Sequence record: MT968995.1
Direction: 5' to 3' (one strand)
Length of the DNA stretch: 64,000 nucleotides
Source of the DNA: Escherichia phage vB_EcoM_WL-3
The position numbers were made by a program, and so were the translations under genes. This document shows positions 565-62,970 of the stretch, one piece after another; the stretch's first letter is position 1, and each line of letters opens with the position of its first letter. The notes under the pieces were generated by a model. It made no database searches and was not told the DNA's origin. It saw only the letters and a list, made by a program, of their open reading frames with translations.

Positions 565-665
565 AGTATTTCCTTAGGTTAATTGAGATTTAAAATCCGT
601 AGGAGTATAATACTCTATCGTCAAATTATAGGCTCATAATATCTCAATCATGAGCCTGCGTAAAC

Positions 666-929: not shown

Positions 930-1124
930 TTCATTCTCCAAGTTGTTTTCTGTATCAGTAGTTGATAGTTGTATAGTACCATGGAAGAACAGAGATGTAA
1001 ACAGTTTTGTGAAAAAATTTTTAGGGAATTCTAGGGCAGGGATGGGCAATTAAAGGATAGGATAATATATTATAAAGGGTATAAACTAAATGATGCCTAG
1101 AGAGGTCCAGAAAGGCCTAGATAC

Positions 1125-4194: not shown

Positions 4195-4593
4195 TCAGCC
4201 TTCATCAACAATAGTGTGAGTATTAGCATTTACGATTTGCCACCAATCAAAGCGATTAGAATCCATCGGTTTGTTTTCATTTTCTTTGATAATGTCACGG
4301 AGTTCATCTTCAGAGAATGCTTTAGCGATTAAATCGGTATACCCACCACGTGGATAATAATTATCACCTGCAAACAAAAGGAAATTTACCTTCCCGGAAG
4401 GAACATACGCTTCCTTAGGATACTTGTTTCCTGCGTGGTCAACCACTTCAATATAACGGTAAGGAATATCGGTTCTTTCAACCCATTGCCATGCCGCCGC
4501 AGGGGAATCGAAAGCATCTACACCTAAACGATTATCTTCATCTTTAGACGGATTATTTTCGTAATCCGCATATACATAATATTCAACGTTCAT
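4195..4593 (-). CDS. hypothetical protein
   Basis: 132-aa ORF, ATG start overlapping upstream ORF stop. Confidence 0.5.
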   Translation of the reverse strand: MNVEYYVYADYENNPSKDEDNRLGVDAFDSPAAAWQWVERTDIPYRYIEVVDHAGNKYPKEAYVPSGKVNFLLFAGDNYYPRGGYTDLIAKAFSEDELRDIIKENENKPMDSNRFDWWQIVNANTHTIVDEG

Positions 4594-4778
4594 TATTCAC
4601 CTTTAGAAATTTTATCCATAACAATAGCAATTAAACCAATTAAAAATGCTACTACAAGTGAAAAAACATTTTCTGCCGTAGTCAATAATCCGCATATAAA
4701 TCCAACAAACATTGAAAAACTGAAAGCGGAAGCAGAAATTGCAATAGCAACATTTCGAATTAATTCACAACGTTTCAT
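4593..4778 (-). CDS. small predicted membrane protein
   Basis: 61 aa with two hydrophobic stretches (AIAISASAFSFSMFVGFICGLL, VFSLVVAFLIGLIAIV). Confidence 0.45.
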   Translation of the reverse strand: MKRCELIRNVAIAISASAFSFSMFVGFICGLLTTAENVFSLVVAFLIGLIAIVMDKISKGE

Positions 4779-4806
4779 TTTATTCTCCTCAGTAGTAGAT
4801 AGGGTA

Positions 4807-4836
4807 ATAGTATCACTACCCTATCTAAAAGTAAAC
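4807..4836 (-). promoter_or_regulatory. T4 early-type sigma70 promoter
   Basis: Minus strand GTTTAC, ~17-18 nt, TGaTACTAT; -10 sits in loop of 9-bp inverted repeat gatagggta/taccctatc (4798-4825). Confidence 0.5.
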
Positions 4837-5070
4837 TTATTTTTTACGAAAAATTGATTTATTTTCTGCTGCCCATTTTTCAATAACTGCAGCAGGACCA
4901 GTAACAACAATTTTATCACCGTAATCTTCTGCGGCGAGTTGACCGAAATTATCTAATGCATCACGAAGAACTCCATGAGGCATTTCACCCATTTTATCTT
5001 TCTTGCCAGTGTAAATAAACTCAACTTTTACATCAGCAGTTTCAGCAATAAATTCTTGGTAAGTTTTCAT
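4837..5070 (-). CDS. ipI: internal protein I-like capsid cargo protein with targeting signal
   Basis: Track ORF starts MEIKM; second ATG gives MKTYQEFIAE, the T4 IPI targeting signal as recalled; GGAAA 7 nt upstream. Confidence 0.5.
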   Translation of the reverse strand: MKTYQEFIAETADVKVEFIYTGKKDKMGEMPHGVLRDALDNFGQLAAEDYGDKIVVTGPAAVIEKWAAENKSIFRKK

Positions 5071-5104
5071 TTTGATTTCCATTTGGTTTTGTTTTGATAG
5101 GGTA

Positions 5105-5134
5105 ATAGTATCACAACTAAAACCCTATGTAAAC
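5105..5134 (-). promoter_or_regulatory. T4 early-type sigma70 promoter
   Basis: Minus strand cacaaagttGTTTACA, 17 nt, TGaTACTAT; AT-rich upstream; 7-bp inverted repeat atagggt/accctat spans the -10. Confidence 0.5.
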
Positions 5135-5146
5135 AACTTTGTGAAA

Positions 5147-5404
5147 TTATTTTAAATCTTCTAATCGTTTCTTCATCTTAGAACCATTTTTAGCAATTTC
5201 TCCTGCATCGGAGCATAATGCTAAAAGTGCTTTAACTTTAGTTTGGTCTCCTTTAAAAGATGAAGGATCGACCGCAGCAGCAAGTTCTTTAATACGAGAG
5301 AAAAGACGCTCAGCTTCAGCTAAAGCCATTCCAAGCTTTACTTCCATACCGTGGGAAGATTCAGTGATAGTAGTTTTTGTAGCAAACTCTTTGAAAGTTT
5401 TCAT
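5147..5404 (-). CDS. small protein with internal-protein-like targeting signal
   Basis: N-terminus MKTFKEFATK resembles the MKTY.EF motif; 85 aa. Confidence 0.45.
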   Translation of the reverse strand: MKTFKEFATKTTITESSHGMEVKLGMALAEAERLFSRIKELAAAVDPSSFKGDQTKVKALLALCSDAGEIAKNGSKMKKRLEDLK

Positions 5405-5435
5405 TTTTATTTTCCTAATTAATTTTGATGAGGTA

Positions 5436-5465
5436 ATAGTATCACTACCTCATCAGTATGTAAAC
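5436..5465 (-). promoter_or_regulatory. T4 early-type sigma70 promoter
   Basis: Minus strand cacaaagttGTTTACA, 17 nt, TGaTACTAT; 10-bp inverted repeat tgatgaggta/tacctcatca (5426-5455) brackets the -10. Confidence 0.5.
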
Positions 5466-5477
5466 AACTTTGTGAAA

Positions 5478-6162
<685 letters not shown>

Positions 6163-6163
<1 letters not shown>

Positions 6164-6888
6164 TATAGTACCTTTAGTGTATTTTTAATTTTAGAAAAAA
6201 GTTCTTCAAGAGAACCATCGTTTGTAATTACTAAATCGCCATCACGAATTGGCAATCCAGCTTCTGTAATATGTGTATCATTGGATTTTTGACCAGGACG
6301 AACTACATGAATTACTGTAGCACCCATCGCCCTAGCCGCATCCATTTCATGATCTTGACGGGTATCAGGAACGATATAATAATCATAACCTGAGTTAAAT
6401 TTATCAAGATAATCTAAAGCAAATAATTTTACCCAGTACATGCGGTCGAAGTTATTAACAATCAAATCCGTACCTAGGGCTTGCATCAGACGACGGACTG
6501 ACCATTGATCTTCAATATTATTTATAACGTCAATAATCTTGTTAAATGCTACGGAATTAACTGATTCTTGTCCTTCGTCATCAAAAACAAACACACCTTT
6601 AATTGGGCTTTTACCATTAAGATAGCAAAATGCTTGTTCCATAATCGTGATTACTTCTAATTTAGTTAGATTTAAATTAGTCTCACGATCATAGTCAATT
6701 CCTTCAAACTCTTTACGAGTTAAGCAAGGATAGTCGGTATTTGCTGCAAATACTCCCCATGCATAAGCCAATGCATCCTTAATAGGACCAGCAAGTTGGT
6801 ATTTAACTGCAGAATAATTGCTCATGATAAAATCAGCAGTAGTATCTTTTCCACTACGCTTTACACCGCTTAAAAAGATTAGTTTCAT
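6163..6888 (-). CDS. 1: gp1 deoxynucleoside monophosphate kinase
   Basis: 241 aa; P-loop GVKRSGKDT near N-terminus; synteny 57A-1-3-2-4. Confidence 0.8.
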
Positions 6889-8877: not shown

Positions 8878-8885
8878 TATTTATA
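8878..8885 (-). promoter_or_regulatory. T4 late promoter TATAAATA for gene 4
   Basis: Exact TATAAATA on minus strand 27 nt upstream of gp4 ATG. Confidence 0.6.
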
Positions 8886-53338: not shown

Positions 53339-55395
53339 TACATCTTGAACTTTTTAGACATTCCGTTGATGTTAACCAAAGAAGCTAAGATTTGAGAAAC
53401 TTCGTTTTCCTCTTCTTTTGATTCTTCTACAAGGAATTGATTAAACCCAGCCATTGGACGAACTTCACCAGTTTCCATCAGATGATCGCCATCATATACC
53501 GATTCTTCTAATTGTTCAGAAGGAGGAACGATTGTACCTTCGATTAAATACTTGTTATAAGCAGTTTCTTTCATCATGTACGTGCTCACTTTATTAATCT
53601 TCAGCAAAATTCCACGTGGTAAAATAACTTCAGCTTCTGACGTAAATCCTGATAAATGACCCGGAACGATAACTTTGATTCGCTCAGCTCCTTTAATTAC
53701 CATACCCACGCTAGTTTCAGCATCTTCATTCGCATAAGCAGAATGACTGCCCATATGCATCAAATCTTCTGCGTCAATTGAACCTTCTCCTTCACCAGAA
53801 AATACTGCACTGGAATCATCTAGAGCCATATAGTTTTTACCATACTCACCGAAGATATTTGGTTTAAGCGATGTGGATACGAAGTTCTTAAAATAGAACA
53901 TTTTATTTTCAATATTATGACGTAAAGTTTTAAAGGTAACTTCTTGGCCACGGTAAAGCGTAGTTCCTGGAGGAAGAACTGATCCTTTGGCAAAAGCAGA
54001 ATCCATCGTCTCGATGTGTTTAATAGCTCGTTCCATATATTCTTCACGAGTAGAATCCGGTTTACCTAAAAGGAACGAGTTCATTTCAACATATGAATCT
54101 GCGCAATAATCTTCAATTACATCAGACTCAGCCCGAGTTAATCCTTTTGGGGGTACTTCAGTACTTGCATATTCATACGCTTGAGAAGCAGACTCATTAA
54201 TCAATTTATAAATGCCATTCATGACAAATTGAATAATAGCTACCTTTTCATCTGGCGTGGCTTTAGAACCTTTAACTAAATCATTGACAATTTTCTTAAT
54301 AACATCAAAGCTATTAGAAATATTAATGTCAGCAAGATCGCTTAAAATTTTATCAGTTTTATAATCAAAAAATTCTTTATTCTTTAAATATTCTTGAGAA
54401 CCTTGATGTGTTATATCGCTCTGCAGTCTGATAGACGGATCACGTAAACGTGCATGGGCCAATGCAATATGATTTCGGAAGCTTTTTAGTTCATAATCAC
54501 TAGATTTAAAACGAGAAGCACTCCTCATACCACCGATAGCTCCTTTGCCGAAGTTTGAACCAATCTGAATAACGCCAGAGTTCATTGGTCCTTCTGCTTT
54601 ATATACCGGAACTTTAGATTCAAACTCTTGATATTTCTTAGCAGCGAAACTATCGCCCTGAAGTGAAGCATCGACAGTAGAGTATTGAGCTTGTGCTGCT
54701 AATCGACGACTAATTTTAGTTTTCTGAATAACAGCTTGATCCGTGCGCTTATCATTTTCTAAAGCAATAGAAGCGGCAACAGCAACAGCTTTAGGAACAG
54801 CATTACCTGTTTTAACGTCTACATAAACATCACCAACCTTTGATTCAACTTTTGTGAATAACTCAGTTGAAATAGGAGGTACACCTGGAATGTCTTCTAA
54901 ATTGGCATTTTTACGGTAAACCATAATATATGCATACTTTTTATCGTAATCCCAGATTTCCTTTAAAAGAACATATCGACCTGCTCCTTTAGTACGTACT
55001 AAACGGTCAGCAATAACTTGAATTTGTCGAGCTGCGCCATTTGTTTTACTCTTTAGTACGCGGAACAGGCATGCGTCAATTTTATACTGTTTCATTGTTT
55101 GAAGAGCAGTATCAAAAACCGCATTAATAACACCAATTGGATTTCCACCCAAGTTTTTAAGTTTAACTAATGATAGTTTCTCATTGACACCTATCATTAC
55201 GATATGCATCATTTTATCGCCTGGCTTAACGTTTTTATTTGTATCACCGCCAGAGGTGTATGTGCAAAATCTAAATCCAGGAAGCACGCTTTCTTCACCG
55301 GCTTGAATAGCAAAAATTTGAGGTATTTTATGCTTAGGATTTAAGTTAACAACCGGCGCCGAAGCGCCGTCAAATAATTCTGTAATAAGTTCCAT
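53338..55395 (-). CDS. Alt-family mono-ADP-ribosyltransferase, paralog A
   Basis: 685 aa; C-terminal ART triad YRG / FVSTSL / SEAEVILPRG; N-terminus MELITELFD shared with adjacent paralog. Confidence 0.8.
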   Translation of the reverse strand: MELITELFDGASAPVVNLNPKHKIPQIFAIQAGEESVLPGFRFCTYTSGGDTNKNVKPGDKMMHIVMIGVNEKLSLVKLKNLGGNPIGVINAVFDTALQTMKQYKIDACLFRVLKSKTNGAARQIQVIADRLVRTKGAGRYVLLKEIWDYDKKYAYIMVYRKNANLEDIPGVPPISTELFTKVESKVGDVYVDVKTGNAVPKAVAVAASIALENDKRTDQAVIQKTKISRRLAAQAQYSTVDASLQGDSFAAKKYQEFESKVPVYKAEGPMNSGVIQIGSNFGKGAIGGMRSASRFKSSDYELKSFRNHIALAHARLRDPSIRLQSDITHQGSQEYLKNKEFFDYKTDKILSDLADINISNSFDVIKKIVNDLVKGSKATPDEKVAIIQFVMNGIYKLINESASQAYEYASTEVPPKGLTRAESDVIEDYCADSYVEMNSFLLGKPDSTREEYMERAIKHIETMDSAFAKGSVLPPGTTLYRGQEVTFKTLRHNIENKMFYFKNFVSTSLKPNIFGEYGKNYMALDDSSAVFSGEGEGSIDAEDLMHMGSHSAYANEDAETSVGMVIKGAERIKVIVPGHLSGFTSEAEVILPRGILLKINKVSTYMMKETAYNKYLIEGTIVPPSEQLEESVYDGDHLMETGEVRPMAGFNQFLVEESKEEENEVSQILASLVNINGMSKKFKM

Positions 55396-61852: not shown

Positions 61853-61907
61853 GATGTTTAATTGCGGTACAGGTATATAATATCATATCCTGTACCAAAG
61901 TAAACAA

Positions 61908-62240
61908 TTATTTTACTACTTTCCAGTGCTGCATGTCAAGTTTACCAACTTTTTTCATCTTCTCAATTAAGCGTTCTGCACGTTGGCGAGCTGTAACATA
62001 ATACCATTCACCTAATTCATTTTGTTCAATTTTTCCAACGATTACTGTATTCAATTCATAAATCCAACCAGTAAAGAAATTATGAACTTGAATTGTAAAG
62101 GTGAAATCTGTTCCCATACCTTCTGTTGTTTCTACTTCAATAATATCACCTTCAACTGCCATTAAGAACCACATAGTTTCGTTATATTCACCATTGAAAC
62201 ATTTAGCTTTAACCGCAGCGTTCAGATTAATCGTTTTCAT
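61908..62240 (-). CDS. hypothetical protein (position of T4 30.8)
   Basis: 110-aa ORF downstream of early promoter. Confidence 0.5.
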   Translation of the reverse strand: MKTINLNAAVKAKCFNGEYNETMWFLMAVEGDIIEVETTEGMGTDFTFTIQVHNFFTGWIYELNTVIVGKIEQNELGEWYYVTARQRAERLIEKMKKVGKLDMQHWKVVK

Positions 62241-62270
62241 TTTATTCTCCTTTGTTTGTGTAAGATAATA

Positions 62271-62300
62271 CTATCACAAAGGAACCATACTGTAAACAAC
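62271..62300 (-). promoter_or_regulatory. T4 early-type sigma70 promoter
   Basis: Minus strand cacaaagttGTTTACA, 17 nt, TGaTAGTAT; same cassette as at 5105-5134 and 5436-5465. Confidence 0.5.
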
Positions 62301-62317
62301 TTTGTGCAATCTTTGGA

Positions 62318-62347
62318 AAATAAAAAAGGACTCCCGAAGGAGTCCTC
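62318..62347 (-). terminator. rho-independent terminator after 30.9-like ORF
   Basis: Minus strand aggactcc-uucg-ggagucc followed by UUUUUAUUUU. Confidence 0.7.
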
Positions 62348-62721: not shown

Positions 62722-62970
62722 TTACTTCAGTGTTACCACAAAGTGACGAACTGCTTTTCGTGCAGCAGAAGCCAGAGGCTTAGCATATTTAAGTTCATCT
62801 TTTTCCTGGAGCTCAGCAGCTAATGCAGTTTGAGCAGGATTCAGATGTTTGAAATAACGCAGGATTTCAAGGGCTTCGGCTTCAACATCAATAGATGCGC
62901 CATAGTTTTCGTGACCATTATTCCATGCGTTTCGTTGCAGTTCAAGAGCGTGTTGTAATTGTTTAATCAT
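62722..62970 (-). CDS. rIII: rIII lysis-inhibition accessory protein
   Basis: 82 aa as in T4; position between gene 31 and 30.x cluster. Confidence 0.8.
   Translation of the reverse strand: MIKQLQHALELQRNAWNNGHENYGASIDVEAEALEILRYFKHLNPAQTALAAELQEKDELKYAKPLASAARKAVRHFVVTLK

Follow-up and report, generated by a model that had tools for sequence, protein, structure and literature searches.

The internal-protein (IP) locus of Escherichia phage vB_EcoM_WL-3 carries early promoters of the T4 type whose -10 elements lie in the loops of inverted repeats, and we lean towards the reading that these promoters head PeSL-like IP cassettes in which the repeat, copied as a hairpin into read-through RNA, marks a cistron boundary. 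The window analyzed here is the whole 64,000-nucleotide stretch from record MT968995.1, which derives from a Tequatrovirus (T4-like) genome and which matches Tequatrovirus genomes with 100% identity in the cassette region. Three of the four sites considered below (sites 1-3, or cassettes 1-3) are in the hyperplastic IP locus that follows closely downstream of genes 57A/57B, where two IP genes with an MKT(F/Y)xEF N-terminus stand between 57B and a homologue of trna.4 and the intergenic spaces of about 55-75 nt are occupied by a promoter and its leader. IP loci are where T4-like phages exchange injected anti-defence proteins, and IPI* counters the GmrSD restriction system. The cassette content was variable over the 51 IP loci that we compared. 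The loci of relatives were gathered with a composite pattern and by anchoring on gene 57B; in an IMG/VR scan with the 15-mer CACAAAGTTGTTTAC as the sole pattern, most of the matches listed were due to chance, and this query was replaced.

The T4 early consensus consists of GTTTAC at -36 to -31 together with TGn, -10, and UP elements (PMC1524935, PMC2988021). In the window, the early-promoter motif was matched seven times, always on the minus (early) strand, against an expectation of 0.03, and reading of the minus strand bore out the proposal of an earlier note that early-promoter cassettes are present at four sites. GTTTAC occupies the -35 position at each of the four sites and again at 61900-61905, the extended -10 at the four sites is TGATACTAT or TGATAGTAT, the hexamers are 17 nt apart (criterion, 17 +/- 1), and UP-like A/T-rich stretches (aaaataatttcacaaagtt and ttcgtaaaaaataa) lie upstream of the -35 element. 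Cassette 3 (5426-5477, minus strand) is located upstream of the first IP gene (85 aa, 5147-5404), which matched PHROG 3499, an internal head protein; it contains an A/T-rich upstream stretch, CACAAAGTTGTTTAC at 5460-5474, TGATACTAT at 5436-5444 (TGn/-10), and an expected +1 at approximately 5429, and it is identical in sequence to the T4 ipI promoter at 73910-73938. Cassette 2 (5097-5146, minus strand), with CACAAAGTTGTTTAC at 5129-5143 and TGATACTAT at 5105-5113, precedes the second IP gene (4837-5070/5082; PHROG 8111, internal virion protein), and its left half corresponds to the T4 promoter at 73543-73571. Cassette 1 (4796-4850, minus strand) precedes the trna.4 homologue (4593-4778; PHROG 1692) and is composed of an A-rich upstream stretch, GTTTAC at 4831-4836, TGATACTAT at 4807-4815, an expected +1 at approximately 4800, and the Shine-Dalgarno (SD) sequence GAGGAG at 4785-4790. 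Site 4 (62248-62346, minus strand) was recognized by motif and fold as a terminator combined with an early promoter of another architecture: a conventional terminator (AGGACTCC-TTCG-GGAGTCCT followed by T6, 62322-62346) is accompanied by CACAAAGTTGTTTAC at 62292-62306, TGATAGTAT at 62268-62276, and an ATG at 62238-62240. This site is orthologous to T4 130281-130309 and identical to it in sequence. Motif matches and identity to T4 sites mark the four sites as canonical early promoters of the T4 type. The T4 RefSeq record holds no promoter features, and our literature search found no usable genome-wide mapping of T4 5'/3' ends. The minus-strand string that had been described as common to the four sites is present at sites 2-4, but site 1 lacks 'cacaaagtt' and GTTTACA and reads aaataaGTTTACT; the distance of '17 nt' is correct as the spacing of the TTTACA/TACTAT hexamers but not for the literal strings quoted.

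At sites 1-3, the -10 element lies in the loop of a perfect inverted repeat of 7-11 bp, as had been noticed before. The arms of cassette 1 (TAGATAGGGTA, 4817-4827, on the 5' side and TACCCTATCTA, 4796-4806, on the 3' side) turned out to be 11 bp rather than 9 bp long and to run 2 nt past the start first given. Those of cassette 2 are ATAGGGT (5' arm, 5122-5128) and ACCCTAT (3' arm, 5097-5103), and those of cassette 3 are TGATGAGGTA (5' arm, 5446-5455) and TACCTCATCA (3' arm, 5426-5435). The predicted RNA hairpins of cassettes 1, 2, and 3 had energies of -18.5, -16.6, and -17.4 kcal/mol with z-scores of -4.08, -4.03, and -4.25, respectively; none of 200 shuffles was equally stable (z, -4.0 to -4.3). 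The arms had been thought to differ from copy to copy while remaining complementary. While this is the case when site 1/2 is compared with site 3, sites 1 and 2 have the same core, ATAGGGT/ACCCTAT, in other registers. Thus, true compensatory change among these sites is restricted to site 1/2 versus site 3, where one base pair has changed from A-T to G-C and another from G-C to A-T.

Related arrangements were found elsewhere in the window, all on the minus strand. An additional tight-hairpin early promoter, recognized by motif and fold at 61866-61905 (GTTTAC, 61900-61905; TGATATTAT, 61877-61885), is identical to T4 129890-129917 and has arms (GGTACAGG, 61889-61896, on the 5' side; CCTGTACC, 61866-61873, on the 3' side) that are unrelated to those of sites 1-3, with a predicted RNA hairpin of -16.0 kcal/mol (z, -5.37). 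A promoter-like site without TG at 630-665 (GTTTAC, 660-665; TATTAT, 636-641) also has arms unrelated to those of sites 1-3 (AGGCTCAT, 650-657, and ATGAGCCT, 630-637); its 3' arm overlaps the last two bases of the -10 element, and its RNA hairpin was predicted at -15.7 kcal/mol (z, -4.0). As a contrast class, the canonical early promoter at 973-1002 (GTTTACA...TGGTACTAT), in which TGGTACTAT is followed by the conserved leader ACAACTATCAACTACTGATACAGA, is without a bracketing repeat.

In T4, a repeat of at least 7 bp brackets the -10 element in 8 of 26 canonical early promoters, whereas 0.83 would be expected from shuffling and 0.78 from flank swapping; the maxima in 1000 trials of these controls were 5 and 4, respectively. 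The signal peaked when the repeat was centred on the -10 element, as judged from the slid-register control. Among 48 unique cassettes from the IP loci of 36 relatives, 18 had at least 7 bp, compared with 5.9 expected (maximum, 13). Furthermore, among 59 sequences picked by the -10 motif alone, 59.8% of the cells were paired, against 26-51% in slid registers, and the 56 double-sided changes (37 +/- 4.9 expected) were not equalled in any of 500 shuffles. About 25 distinct tight-hairpin arm pairs were present in T4-like relatives. They include compensatory variants (AGGGCTAT/ATAGCCCT, AGGGTTAT/ATAACCCT, and AGGTCTAT/ATAGACCT) as well as G.U wobble intermediates (GATGGGGTA/TACCCTATC and TGATGAGGTA/TATCTCATCA). 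The mismatches inside stems (4 G.T, 2 C.A, and 2 other) are compatible with selection at either the RNA or the DNA level. The enrichments and the arm variants support the view that pairing, not arm sequence, is what is maintained and that the inverted repeat is selected, in agreement with the significance that the earlier note had attached to compensatory change. Because many cassettes are paralogues or orthologues, the independent events are fewer than the sequence counts.

Such descent also enters into the explanation that the repeat has no function of its own and results from paralogy, from templated quasi-palindrome mutation, or from a compositional bias of the spacer (G/T-rich) versus the discriminator (C/A-rich). 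Sites 1 and 2 indeed share their arm core, common descent connects many of the cassettes, the compensatory changes that distinguish site 1 from site 3 affect two adjacent pairs, so that one templated event could suffice, and some natural chimeras have degraded pairing. However, flank swapping, which keeps the composition, leads to an expectation of 0.78 where T4 shows 8, the lengths of the pairing runs are bimodal (0-2, then 5-10), approximately 25 unrelated arm sequences in several registers are all centred on the -10 element, and in one chimeric cassette an A-to-G change brings a pair back. We therefore consider this explanation decidedly improbable. The chimeric cassettes with degraded pairing (L158 and L149) indicate that the hairpin is not indispensable.

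The diversity of the arms is also relevant to a possible role on double-stranded DNA, with the dyad either adjusting open-complex formation or serving as the binding site of a dimeric shut-off regulator. The dyad centre coincides with the -10 element, and the mechanism by which T4 early promoters are shut off is incompletely explained (PMC2988021). On the other hand, the arms are wholly different between sites, without a common recognition sequence, and the dyad is found in only about one third of early promoters. In addition, we know of no sigma-70 mechanism that reads complementarity between spacer and discriminator, and this role appears extremely improbable. An operator for a dimeric protein was rejected as a candidate because the 25 distinct arm pairs have no half-site common to the promoters; the DNA-level operator that had been suggested previously is accordingly unlikely, since the arms contain no common sequence for recognition by a protein.

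The position of the repeat relative to the transcription start was characteristic. In the tight hairpins, the first base of the 5' arm was 18-30 nt upstream of the expected +1, and the 3' arm extended to -3 to +5, that is, to about +1. Because the 5' arm is upstream of +1, the hairpin can form only in read-through RNA or in single-stranded DNA; the promoters' own leaders folded at 0 kcal/mol and were unstructured. This geometry is consistent with a putative RNA element specific to read-through transcripts. Like an intrinsic terminator, such an element places a stable RNA hairpin where a cistron ends, but the U-run of a terminator is absent here: none of 25 hairpins had at least 5 T in the 8 nt past the stem, these 8-nt tails were A-rich (on average 1.4 T and 4.3 A), and a terminator scan flagged none of the hairpins. 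The intrinsic-terminator reading was rejected on account of the missing U-runs, which make classical intrinsic termination unlikely; if the hairpins attenuate transcription at all, they would have to do so weakly or with the help of a factor. A conventional upstream terminator was found at 6 of 53 promoters with a hairpin and at 18 of 74 without one (p = 0.07), a difference that was not significant, T4 alone included. A scan of 4400-5700 with Rfam 15 returned only two chance-level matches; these scored 22 and 13 bits, where the gathering scores are 55 and 50.

From the sequence and the predicted folding, the most likely role of the hairpin is that of a cistron-boundary mark in polycistronic RNA. 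In a cassette of this kind, only two segments would be free to vary, the spacer and the bases between the -10 element and approximately +5, and selection of these two for complementarity would place the -10 element in the loop. The hairpin would form in read-through RNA, namely in early transcripts of preceding cassettes and also in late transcripts whose late promoters are within gene 1 or upstream of it; a late promoter was looked for between 57B and the IP genes, and none was found there. In these transcripts, it may weaken read-through, protect against exonucleolytic and 5'-end-dependent decay, or do both, and each cassette would thus be insulated and portable. The unpaired conserved parts (UP/-35, -10 loop, and leader start) would provide homology for the insertion, deletion, and swapping of IP genes. 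For a stable hairpin that lacks a U-run and is confined to read-through RNA, attenuation, a decay barrier, a processing signal, and an aid to recombination are all candidate roles.

A different function in RNA is suggested by site 4. Whereas the inverted repeat had been assigned to three copies only, which is accurate for the tight type, site 4 has a second type of pairing, between the spacer (TCCTTTGT, 62276-62283) and the SD sequence (ACAAAGGA, 62248-62255). In the predicted fold of the site 4 read-through RNA (-17.4 kcal/mol; z, -3.2), the SD sequence is paired, whereas it is open in the transcript from the site's own promoter, which folds at 0 kcal/mol. Spacer-SD pairing of at least 7 bp was detected at 4 of 24 promoters, compared with 0.73 expected (P = 0.0015), and the class comprises site 4, T4 ipII, regB, and others. 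These observations speak for a switch of translation or decay of the downstream gene that depends on the origin of the transcript, as in T4 e, soc, 49, and I-TevI, a principle that is established for T4 late promoters (PMC3014915). At sites 1-3, however, both the SD sequence and the AUG are outside the helix and unpaired in the predicted read-through fold. Moreover, IP proteins are required at a late stage, and the late transcripts have to cross these sites, so that a block of translation would be counter-productive. For the tight hairpins, we thus regard such a switch as quite unlikely.

The two types of pairing could nevertheless be instances of a general rule for T-even early promoters, by which about 40% of them carry in the spacer a 5' arm that pairs with the +1 region or with the SD sequence, and RNA structure encodes the origin of the transcript. 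We offer this rule tentatively and consider it rather doubtful. If it is true, read-through and promoter-proximal copies of a cistron would differ in their decay, processing, or translation, and a partner in the +1 region would give a tight hairpin reaching exactly to the start of the promoter's own mRNA. The principle known from e, soc, and 49 would then reach the early class, and PeSL stem-loops would be post-transcriptional elements and not terminators. No description of a transcript-origin rule for early promoters was found in the reviews consulted. The enrichment centred on the -10 element, the end of the 3' arm at +1, and the spacer-SD class offer a starting point for stem tests in T4.

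Comparison with T4 located the joints of IP gene exchange in the promoter cassettes. A 299-nt segment of the window that is missing from T4 was placed at 4807-5105 (minus strand) by pairwise alignment, this being one of the equivalent 299-nt frames. Besides the second IP gene, it takes in the right half of cassette 2 and the left half of cassette 1. The direct repeat GTGATACTATTACCCTATC flanks it, and its breakpoints fall inside the repeated -10/3'-arm sequence. Behind the identical cassette 3, the ORF has been replaced in the window relative to T4, and chimeric left/right half-cassettes are present in relatives. The conserved parts of the cassette act as recombination joints. When single-stranded or supercoiled during T4's recombination-dependent replication, the DNA of the inverted repeat might fold into a hairpin or cruciform and thereby drive cassette shuffling, as a preferred point of breakage or strand exchange, in which case the RNA hairpin would be incidental. 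The indel and replacement joints inside the cassette and the chimeric half-cassettes agree with this idea, as does the folding of both strands as single-stranded DNA (about -8 kcal/mol; z, -3.1 to -3.5). Homologous recombination, however, requires no inverted repeat and can proceed with the conserved direct repeats (UP/-35, -10 loop, and leader) alone, and variable arms lower the homology between cassettes. A stem of 7-11 bp with a loop of 6-18 nt is also a poor cruciform, and neither the centring on the -10 element and the end of the 3' arm at +1 nor the spacer-SD pairing at like promoters elsewhere would be explained. We therefore judge a DNA-level recombination element to be unlikely and keep to the marking of cistron boundaries in read-through RNA as the preferred function of the hairpin.

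The promoter/stem-loop cassettes of the IP locus belong to a kind that is already known and published, and hence they do not constitute a new kind of element. A conserved early-promoter segment of approximately 70 bp in T-even IP loci was reportedly described in EMBO J in 1994 by Repoila et al. That segment and the present cassettes agree in locus (57B to tRNA region; ipI), in phage group, in the organization into promoter-ORF cassettes, and in shuffling through recombination in the promoter segment, which is seen here against T4; in this comparison, made partly by the account of later papers, there is no essential difference. Arbiol 2010 called the T-even IP-locus elements PeSL-like, described them as built on T4 early promoters, with stem-loops that are weak, AT-rich, and variable in size, and took them as analogues, not homologues, of the PeSLs of RB49 (PMC2839356), and Comeau 2014 extended PeSLs to the T4/PST pair (PMC4122927). 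The conserved promoter segment of T-even IP loci has therefore already been described in the form of PeSL-like cassettes (PMC2839356, PMC4122927). The cassettes of the window resemble the PeSLs of RB49/phi1, PST/T4, and nt-1/KVP40 in having a strong early promoter together with a stem-loop, in their short intergenic spaces and hyperplastic regions, in the location of the stem-loop, which is most often between -35 and -10 or overlapping -10 (PMC2839356, PMC4122927), and in the indels and replacements between close relatives. Promoter and stem-loop are united in one short intergenic element, in one of the five positions of a PeSL (-10 overlap included), the hyperplastic region contains small variable ORFs, and the joints of indel and replacement fall inside the element. 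The sequence features of RB49-type PeSLs were not found in the window cassettes: RB49 PeSLs have near-perfect TTGACA/TATAAT and polyG/polyC stems, whereas the promoters here are GTTTAC/TAYWAT and the stems mixed or AT-richer. The sole experimental terminator test in the literature was made with a GC-rich stem-loop of RB49, which was a strong terminator, and not with a T-even one (PMC2839356; PMC4122927). In addition, the PST/T4 stem-loops were placed 'just upstream' of the promoter (PMC4122927), whereas those of the IP locus bracket the -10 element. Finally, T4 genes e, soc, 49, and I-TevI have hairpins that sequester the SD sequence or AUG and contain an internal late or middle promoter (PMC3014915). 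The tight hairpins share with them a 5' arm upstream of the proximal start and structure in the read-through RNA only, but at sites 1-3 the promoters are early and the SD sequence is free. Site 4 (62248-62283), with its SD sequence predicted to be sequestered in read-through RNA, is like the e, soc, 49, and I-TevI hairpins in this respect.

Reading of the minus strand and scripted location of the elements bore out the inverted-repeat arms previously given for three early promoters, sites 1 to 3 (4796-4850, 5097-5146 and 5426-5477). The arms 5' and 3' of the -10 are TAGATAGGGTA (4817-4827) and TACCCTATCTA (4796-4806) at site 1, ATAGGGT (5122-5128) and ACCCTAT (5097-5103) at site 2, and TGATGAGGTA (5446-5455) and TACCTCATCA (5426-5435) at site 3, all on the minus strand, and each pair encloses TGATACTAT. 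The site 1 repeat extends to 11 bp instead of the 9 bp first reported, and an upstream block, 'cacaaagtt', described as common to the sites, is absent from site 1. Compensatory arm change had been claimed among all three copies; it is genuine where site 3 departs from sites 1 and 2, at two neighboring base pairs, but sites 1 and 2 do not show it relative to each other, because they have one arm core, placed in different registers. Seven matches to the promoter motif GTTTAC-N14-18-TGNTANNAT lie in the window, on the minus strand every time (0.03 expected), and the T4 orthologues are identical in sequence to the element of this genome. Motif and identity with T4 identify the sites as early promoters. 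The RNA hairpins of sites 1, 2 and 3 are predicted at -18.5, -16.6 and -17.4 kcal/mol (z -4.0 to -4.3). A further promoter (61866-61905, minus strand; z -5.4) and a promoter-like site (630-665, minus strand; z -4.0) are built alike, with arms of unrelated sequence. This last candidate reads GTTTACG, 17 nt, TATTAT, without TG; its 8-bp repeat AGGCTCAT/ATGAGCCT overlaps the -10, and another -10-like TATTAT lies about 30 nt downstream.

Several Tequatrovirus (T4-like) genomes, such as Escherichia phage vB_EcoM_DalCa, match window positions 4500-6000 at 100% identity, and by annotation sites 1-3 lie on the early-gene strand between gene 57B and the T4 trna.4 homologue. The ORFs served, all on the minus strand, encode a first internal (capsid-injected) protein (IP) of 85 aa (5147-5404; PHROG 3499), a second one (4837-5070/5082; PHROG 8111), and the trna.4 homologue (4593-4778). 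Both IPs have the capsid-targeting sequence MKT(F/Y)xEF at the N-terminus, and the locus is the 'IP1' hyperplastic locus of T-even phages. The longest version of the second IP ORF (4837-5082) begins MEIKMKTYQEF; in DalCa, which is identical there, it is annotated from the second ATG (window 5070), giving MKTYQEF, the IP capsid-targeting consensus. Gene 57B (5478-5936, minus strand) is labeled 'RNA ligase' in RefSeq and PHROG 755, and the T4 listing gives only a conserved hypothetical protein neighboring the tail-fibre chaperone 57A.

The early strand of T4 has 26 canonical early-promoter matches, and every one was inspected. Perfect repeats of at least 6 bp bracket the -10 in 11 of them and repeats of at least 7 bp in 8. 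Among the T4 sites are the promoters of ipI, trna.4, ipIII, motB, cd.3, 30.8, frd.2 and segD. For at least 7 bp, flank shuffling gave 0.83 expected (maximum 5 over 1000 trials) and composition-preserving swapping of right flanks among promoters gave 0.78 (maximum 4), while sliding the center confined the excess to offsets 0 and +6 from the -10. Through the conserved neighbor 57B, 51 IP loci were gathered, the first 36 of which yielded 48 unique cassettes, 18 with at least 7 bp (5.9 expected). All sources together gave 25 distinct arm pairs of tight hairpins, those with the -10 in the loop; the first junction after 57B added pairs such as GGTAGGACTA/TAGTCCTACC and GTGTAGG/CCTACAC. A single register, symmetric about the -10, accounts for most hairpins, and run lengths within it are bimodal (0-2, then 5-10). 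In an ungapped alignment of 59 sequences picked by TGATAYTAT alone, 59.8% of cells are paired versus 26-51% in slid registers, and double-sided changes number 56 versus 37 +/- 4.9 (0/500 shuffles as high). Clear compensatory series (AGGGCTAT/ATAGCCCT, AGGGTTAT/ATAACCCT, AGGTCTAT/ATAGACCT) are accompanied by wobble intermediates (GATGGGGTA/TACCCTATC and TGATGAGGTA/TATCTCATCA), and stem mismatches tally four G.T versus two A.C, which is compatible with selection at either the RNA or the DNA level. Because many sequences are related by descent, the cassette counts exceed the independent events. This enrichment beyond controls, together with the compensatory and wobble series, supports selection for pairing as proposed in the earlier note, and a hairpin without function is quite improbable. 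The observation in that note was confirmed and its interpretation upheld in part: a DNA-level operator is disfavored, since the arms share no common sequence, and a promoter or operator role ranks as the least likely reading, a very improbable one.

In each of the 25 tight hairpins, the first base of the 5' arm precedes the expected start site by 18-30 nt and the last base of the 3' arm falls at -3 to +5. The promoter's own transcript can therefore not form this hairpin, its leader being predicted to be unstructured (0 kcal/mol), and a tight hairpin is possible only in single-stranded DNA or in read-through RNA, begun upstream of the proximal promoter. A classical intrinsic terminator was rejected as improbable: none of the 25 stems is followed by a U-run, and a terminator scan did not flag them. 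The 8 nt past the stem are A-rich (mean 4.3 A, 1.4 T). The intergenic spaces are 55-75 nt, the stop codon adjoins the UP-like region (A/T-rich, upstream of the -35), and only the spacer and the -6 to +5 stretch are free of promoter constraint, which would readily explain the position of a selected intercistronic hairpin around the -10. The stretch from 57B to the IP genes contains no late promoter (TATAAATA), and the closest ones on that strand lie at 6519-6526 and 8878-8885; late synthesis of the capsid proteins must therefore use hairpin-bearing read-through RNA. Over the whole window this octamer has 22 matches against 9.8 +/- 3.2 expected, most of them upstream of structural genes on the plus strand, which fits a window spanning the late morphogenesis region. 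Conventional upstream terminators accompany 6 of 53 hairpin promoters versus 18 of 74 others (p = 0.07, a trend only), and the strong terminators of T4 precede hairpin-less promoters only. Hairpin-less early promoters have a common block of about 45 nt, TGGTACTATACAACTATCAACTACTGATACAGA, comprising the -10 and leader with a small TATCA/TGATA repeat (window 955-1002, minus strand; T4 record 27051, 55355, 70667, 146846, 163644 and 167057); the T4 promoters with this block are those behind strong GC-rich terminators.

Alignment of the window with T4 placed recombination joints inside the cassettes. Cassette 3 (site 3) is identical in both, and the downstream gene is replaced, ipI in T4 and the unrelated 85-aa IP here. 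The second IP gene lies within a 299-nt segment absent from T4 and bounded by a direct repeat, GTGATACTATTACCCTATC, consisting of the -10 loop and 3' arm common to cassettes 2 and 1. Relatives carry chimeric cassettes, for example with a cassette-2-type left half and a cassette-3-type right half, and pairing is partly broken in some (L158, 4472-4560 and 4805-4890; L149, 5177). One A of ATAGGGT is a G in the L158 chimera (ATGGGGT), and this substitution recreates a G-C pair with ACCTCAT, the 3' arm of foreign origin. The joints might suggest a recombination structure at the DNA level; folding of each strand as single-stranded DNA gave about -8 kcal/mol, and we consider this reading rather unlikely. 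Selection for complementarity, a geometry restricted to read-through, the lack of U-runs and the joints within the cassette are shown, and we infer that the hairpin probably serves as a cistron boundary acting on polycistronic RNA. Such a boundary may attenuate transcription, weakly or with the help of a factor, and/or impede RNA decay by exonucleases or by 5'-end-dependent routes. Each portable promoter-ORF cassette would be insulated by its hairpin, and the conserved unpaired parts could provide homology for shuffling.

A repeat had been noted in three of four sites, but site 4 (62248-62346) also has one, in which the spacer pairs with the downstream Shine-Dalgarno (SD) sequence (62248-62283, minus strand). 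Several T4 promoters have this second architecture: ipII (TCTCCTGTAG/CTACAGGAGA), regB, nrdC.8/9 and 30.9, with examples at 65385-65413, 62768-62796, 53914-53942 and 130281-130309 of the T4 record and at about 6326 of a relative (L163). Spacer-SD pairing of at least 7 bp occurs in 4 of 24 T4 promoters (0.73 expected, P = 0.0015). In site 4 read-through RNA a helix of 9 bp is predicted to hold the SD (-17.4 kcal/mol, z -3.2), and the promoter's own transcript is predicted to be open. At spacer-SD promoters, read-through RNA would thus mask the SD and the promoter's own RNA would leave it open. For the tight hairpins, a translational switch dependent on transcript origin is an unlikely explanation.

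The reviews consulted do not describe a spacer-SD class among early promoters, do not put the -10-centered enrichment explicitly in statistical terms, and make no mention of a 3' arm ending at +1; the locus has no Rfam match. The T4 genes e, soc, 49 and I-TevI have an SD masked in read-through RNA and open in the proximal transcript (PMC3014915); site 4 is alike in principle but is an early promoter. The T4 early-promoter consensus comprises UP, GTTTAC, TGn and the -10 (PMC2988021, PMC1524935). Arbiol et al. (2010; PMC2839356), a passage of which cites Repoila et al. on the subject, described promoter-early stem-loops (PeSLs), a stem-loop with a strong early promoter, and Comeau et al. (2014; PMC4122927) extended PeSLs to the T4/PST pair with the promoter consensus TTTACW-N17-TAYWAT. 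Sites 1-3 belong to a kind of element already described, the PeSL-like cassettes with early promoters in the IP locus of T-even phages.
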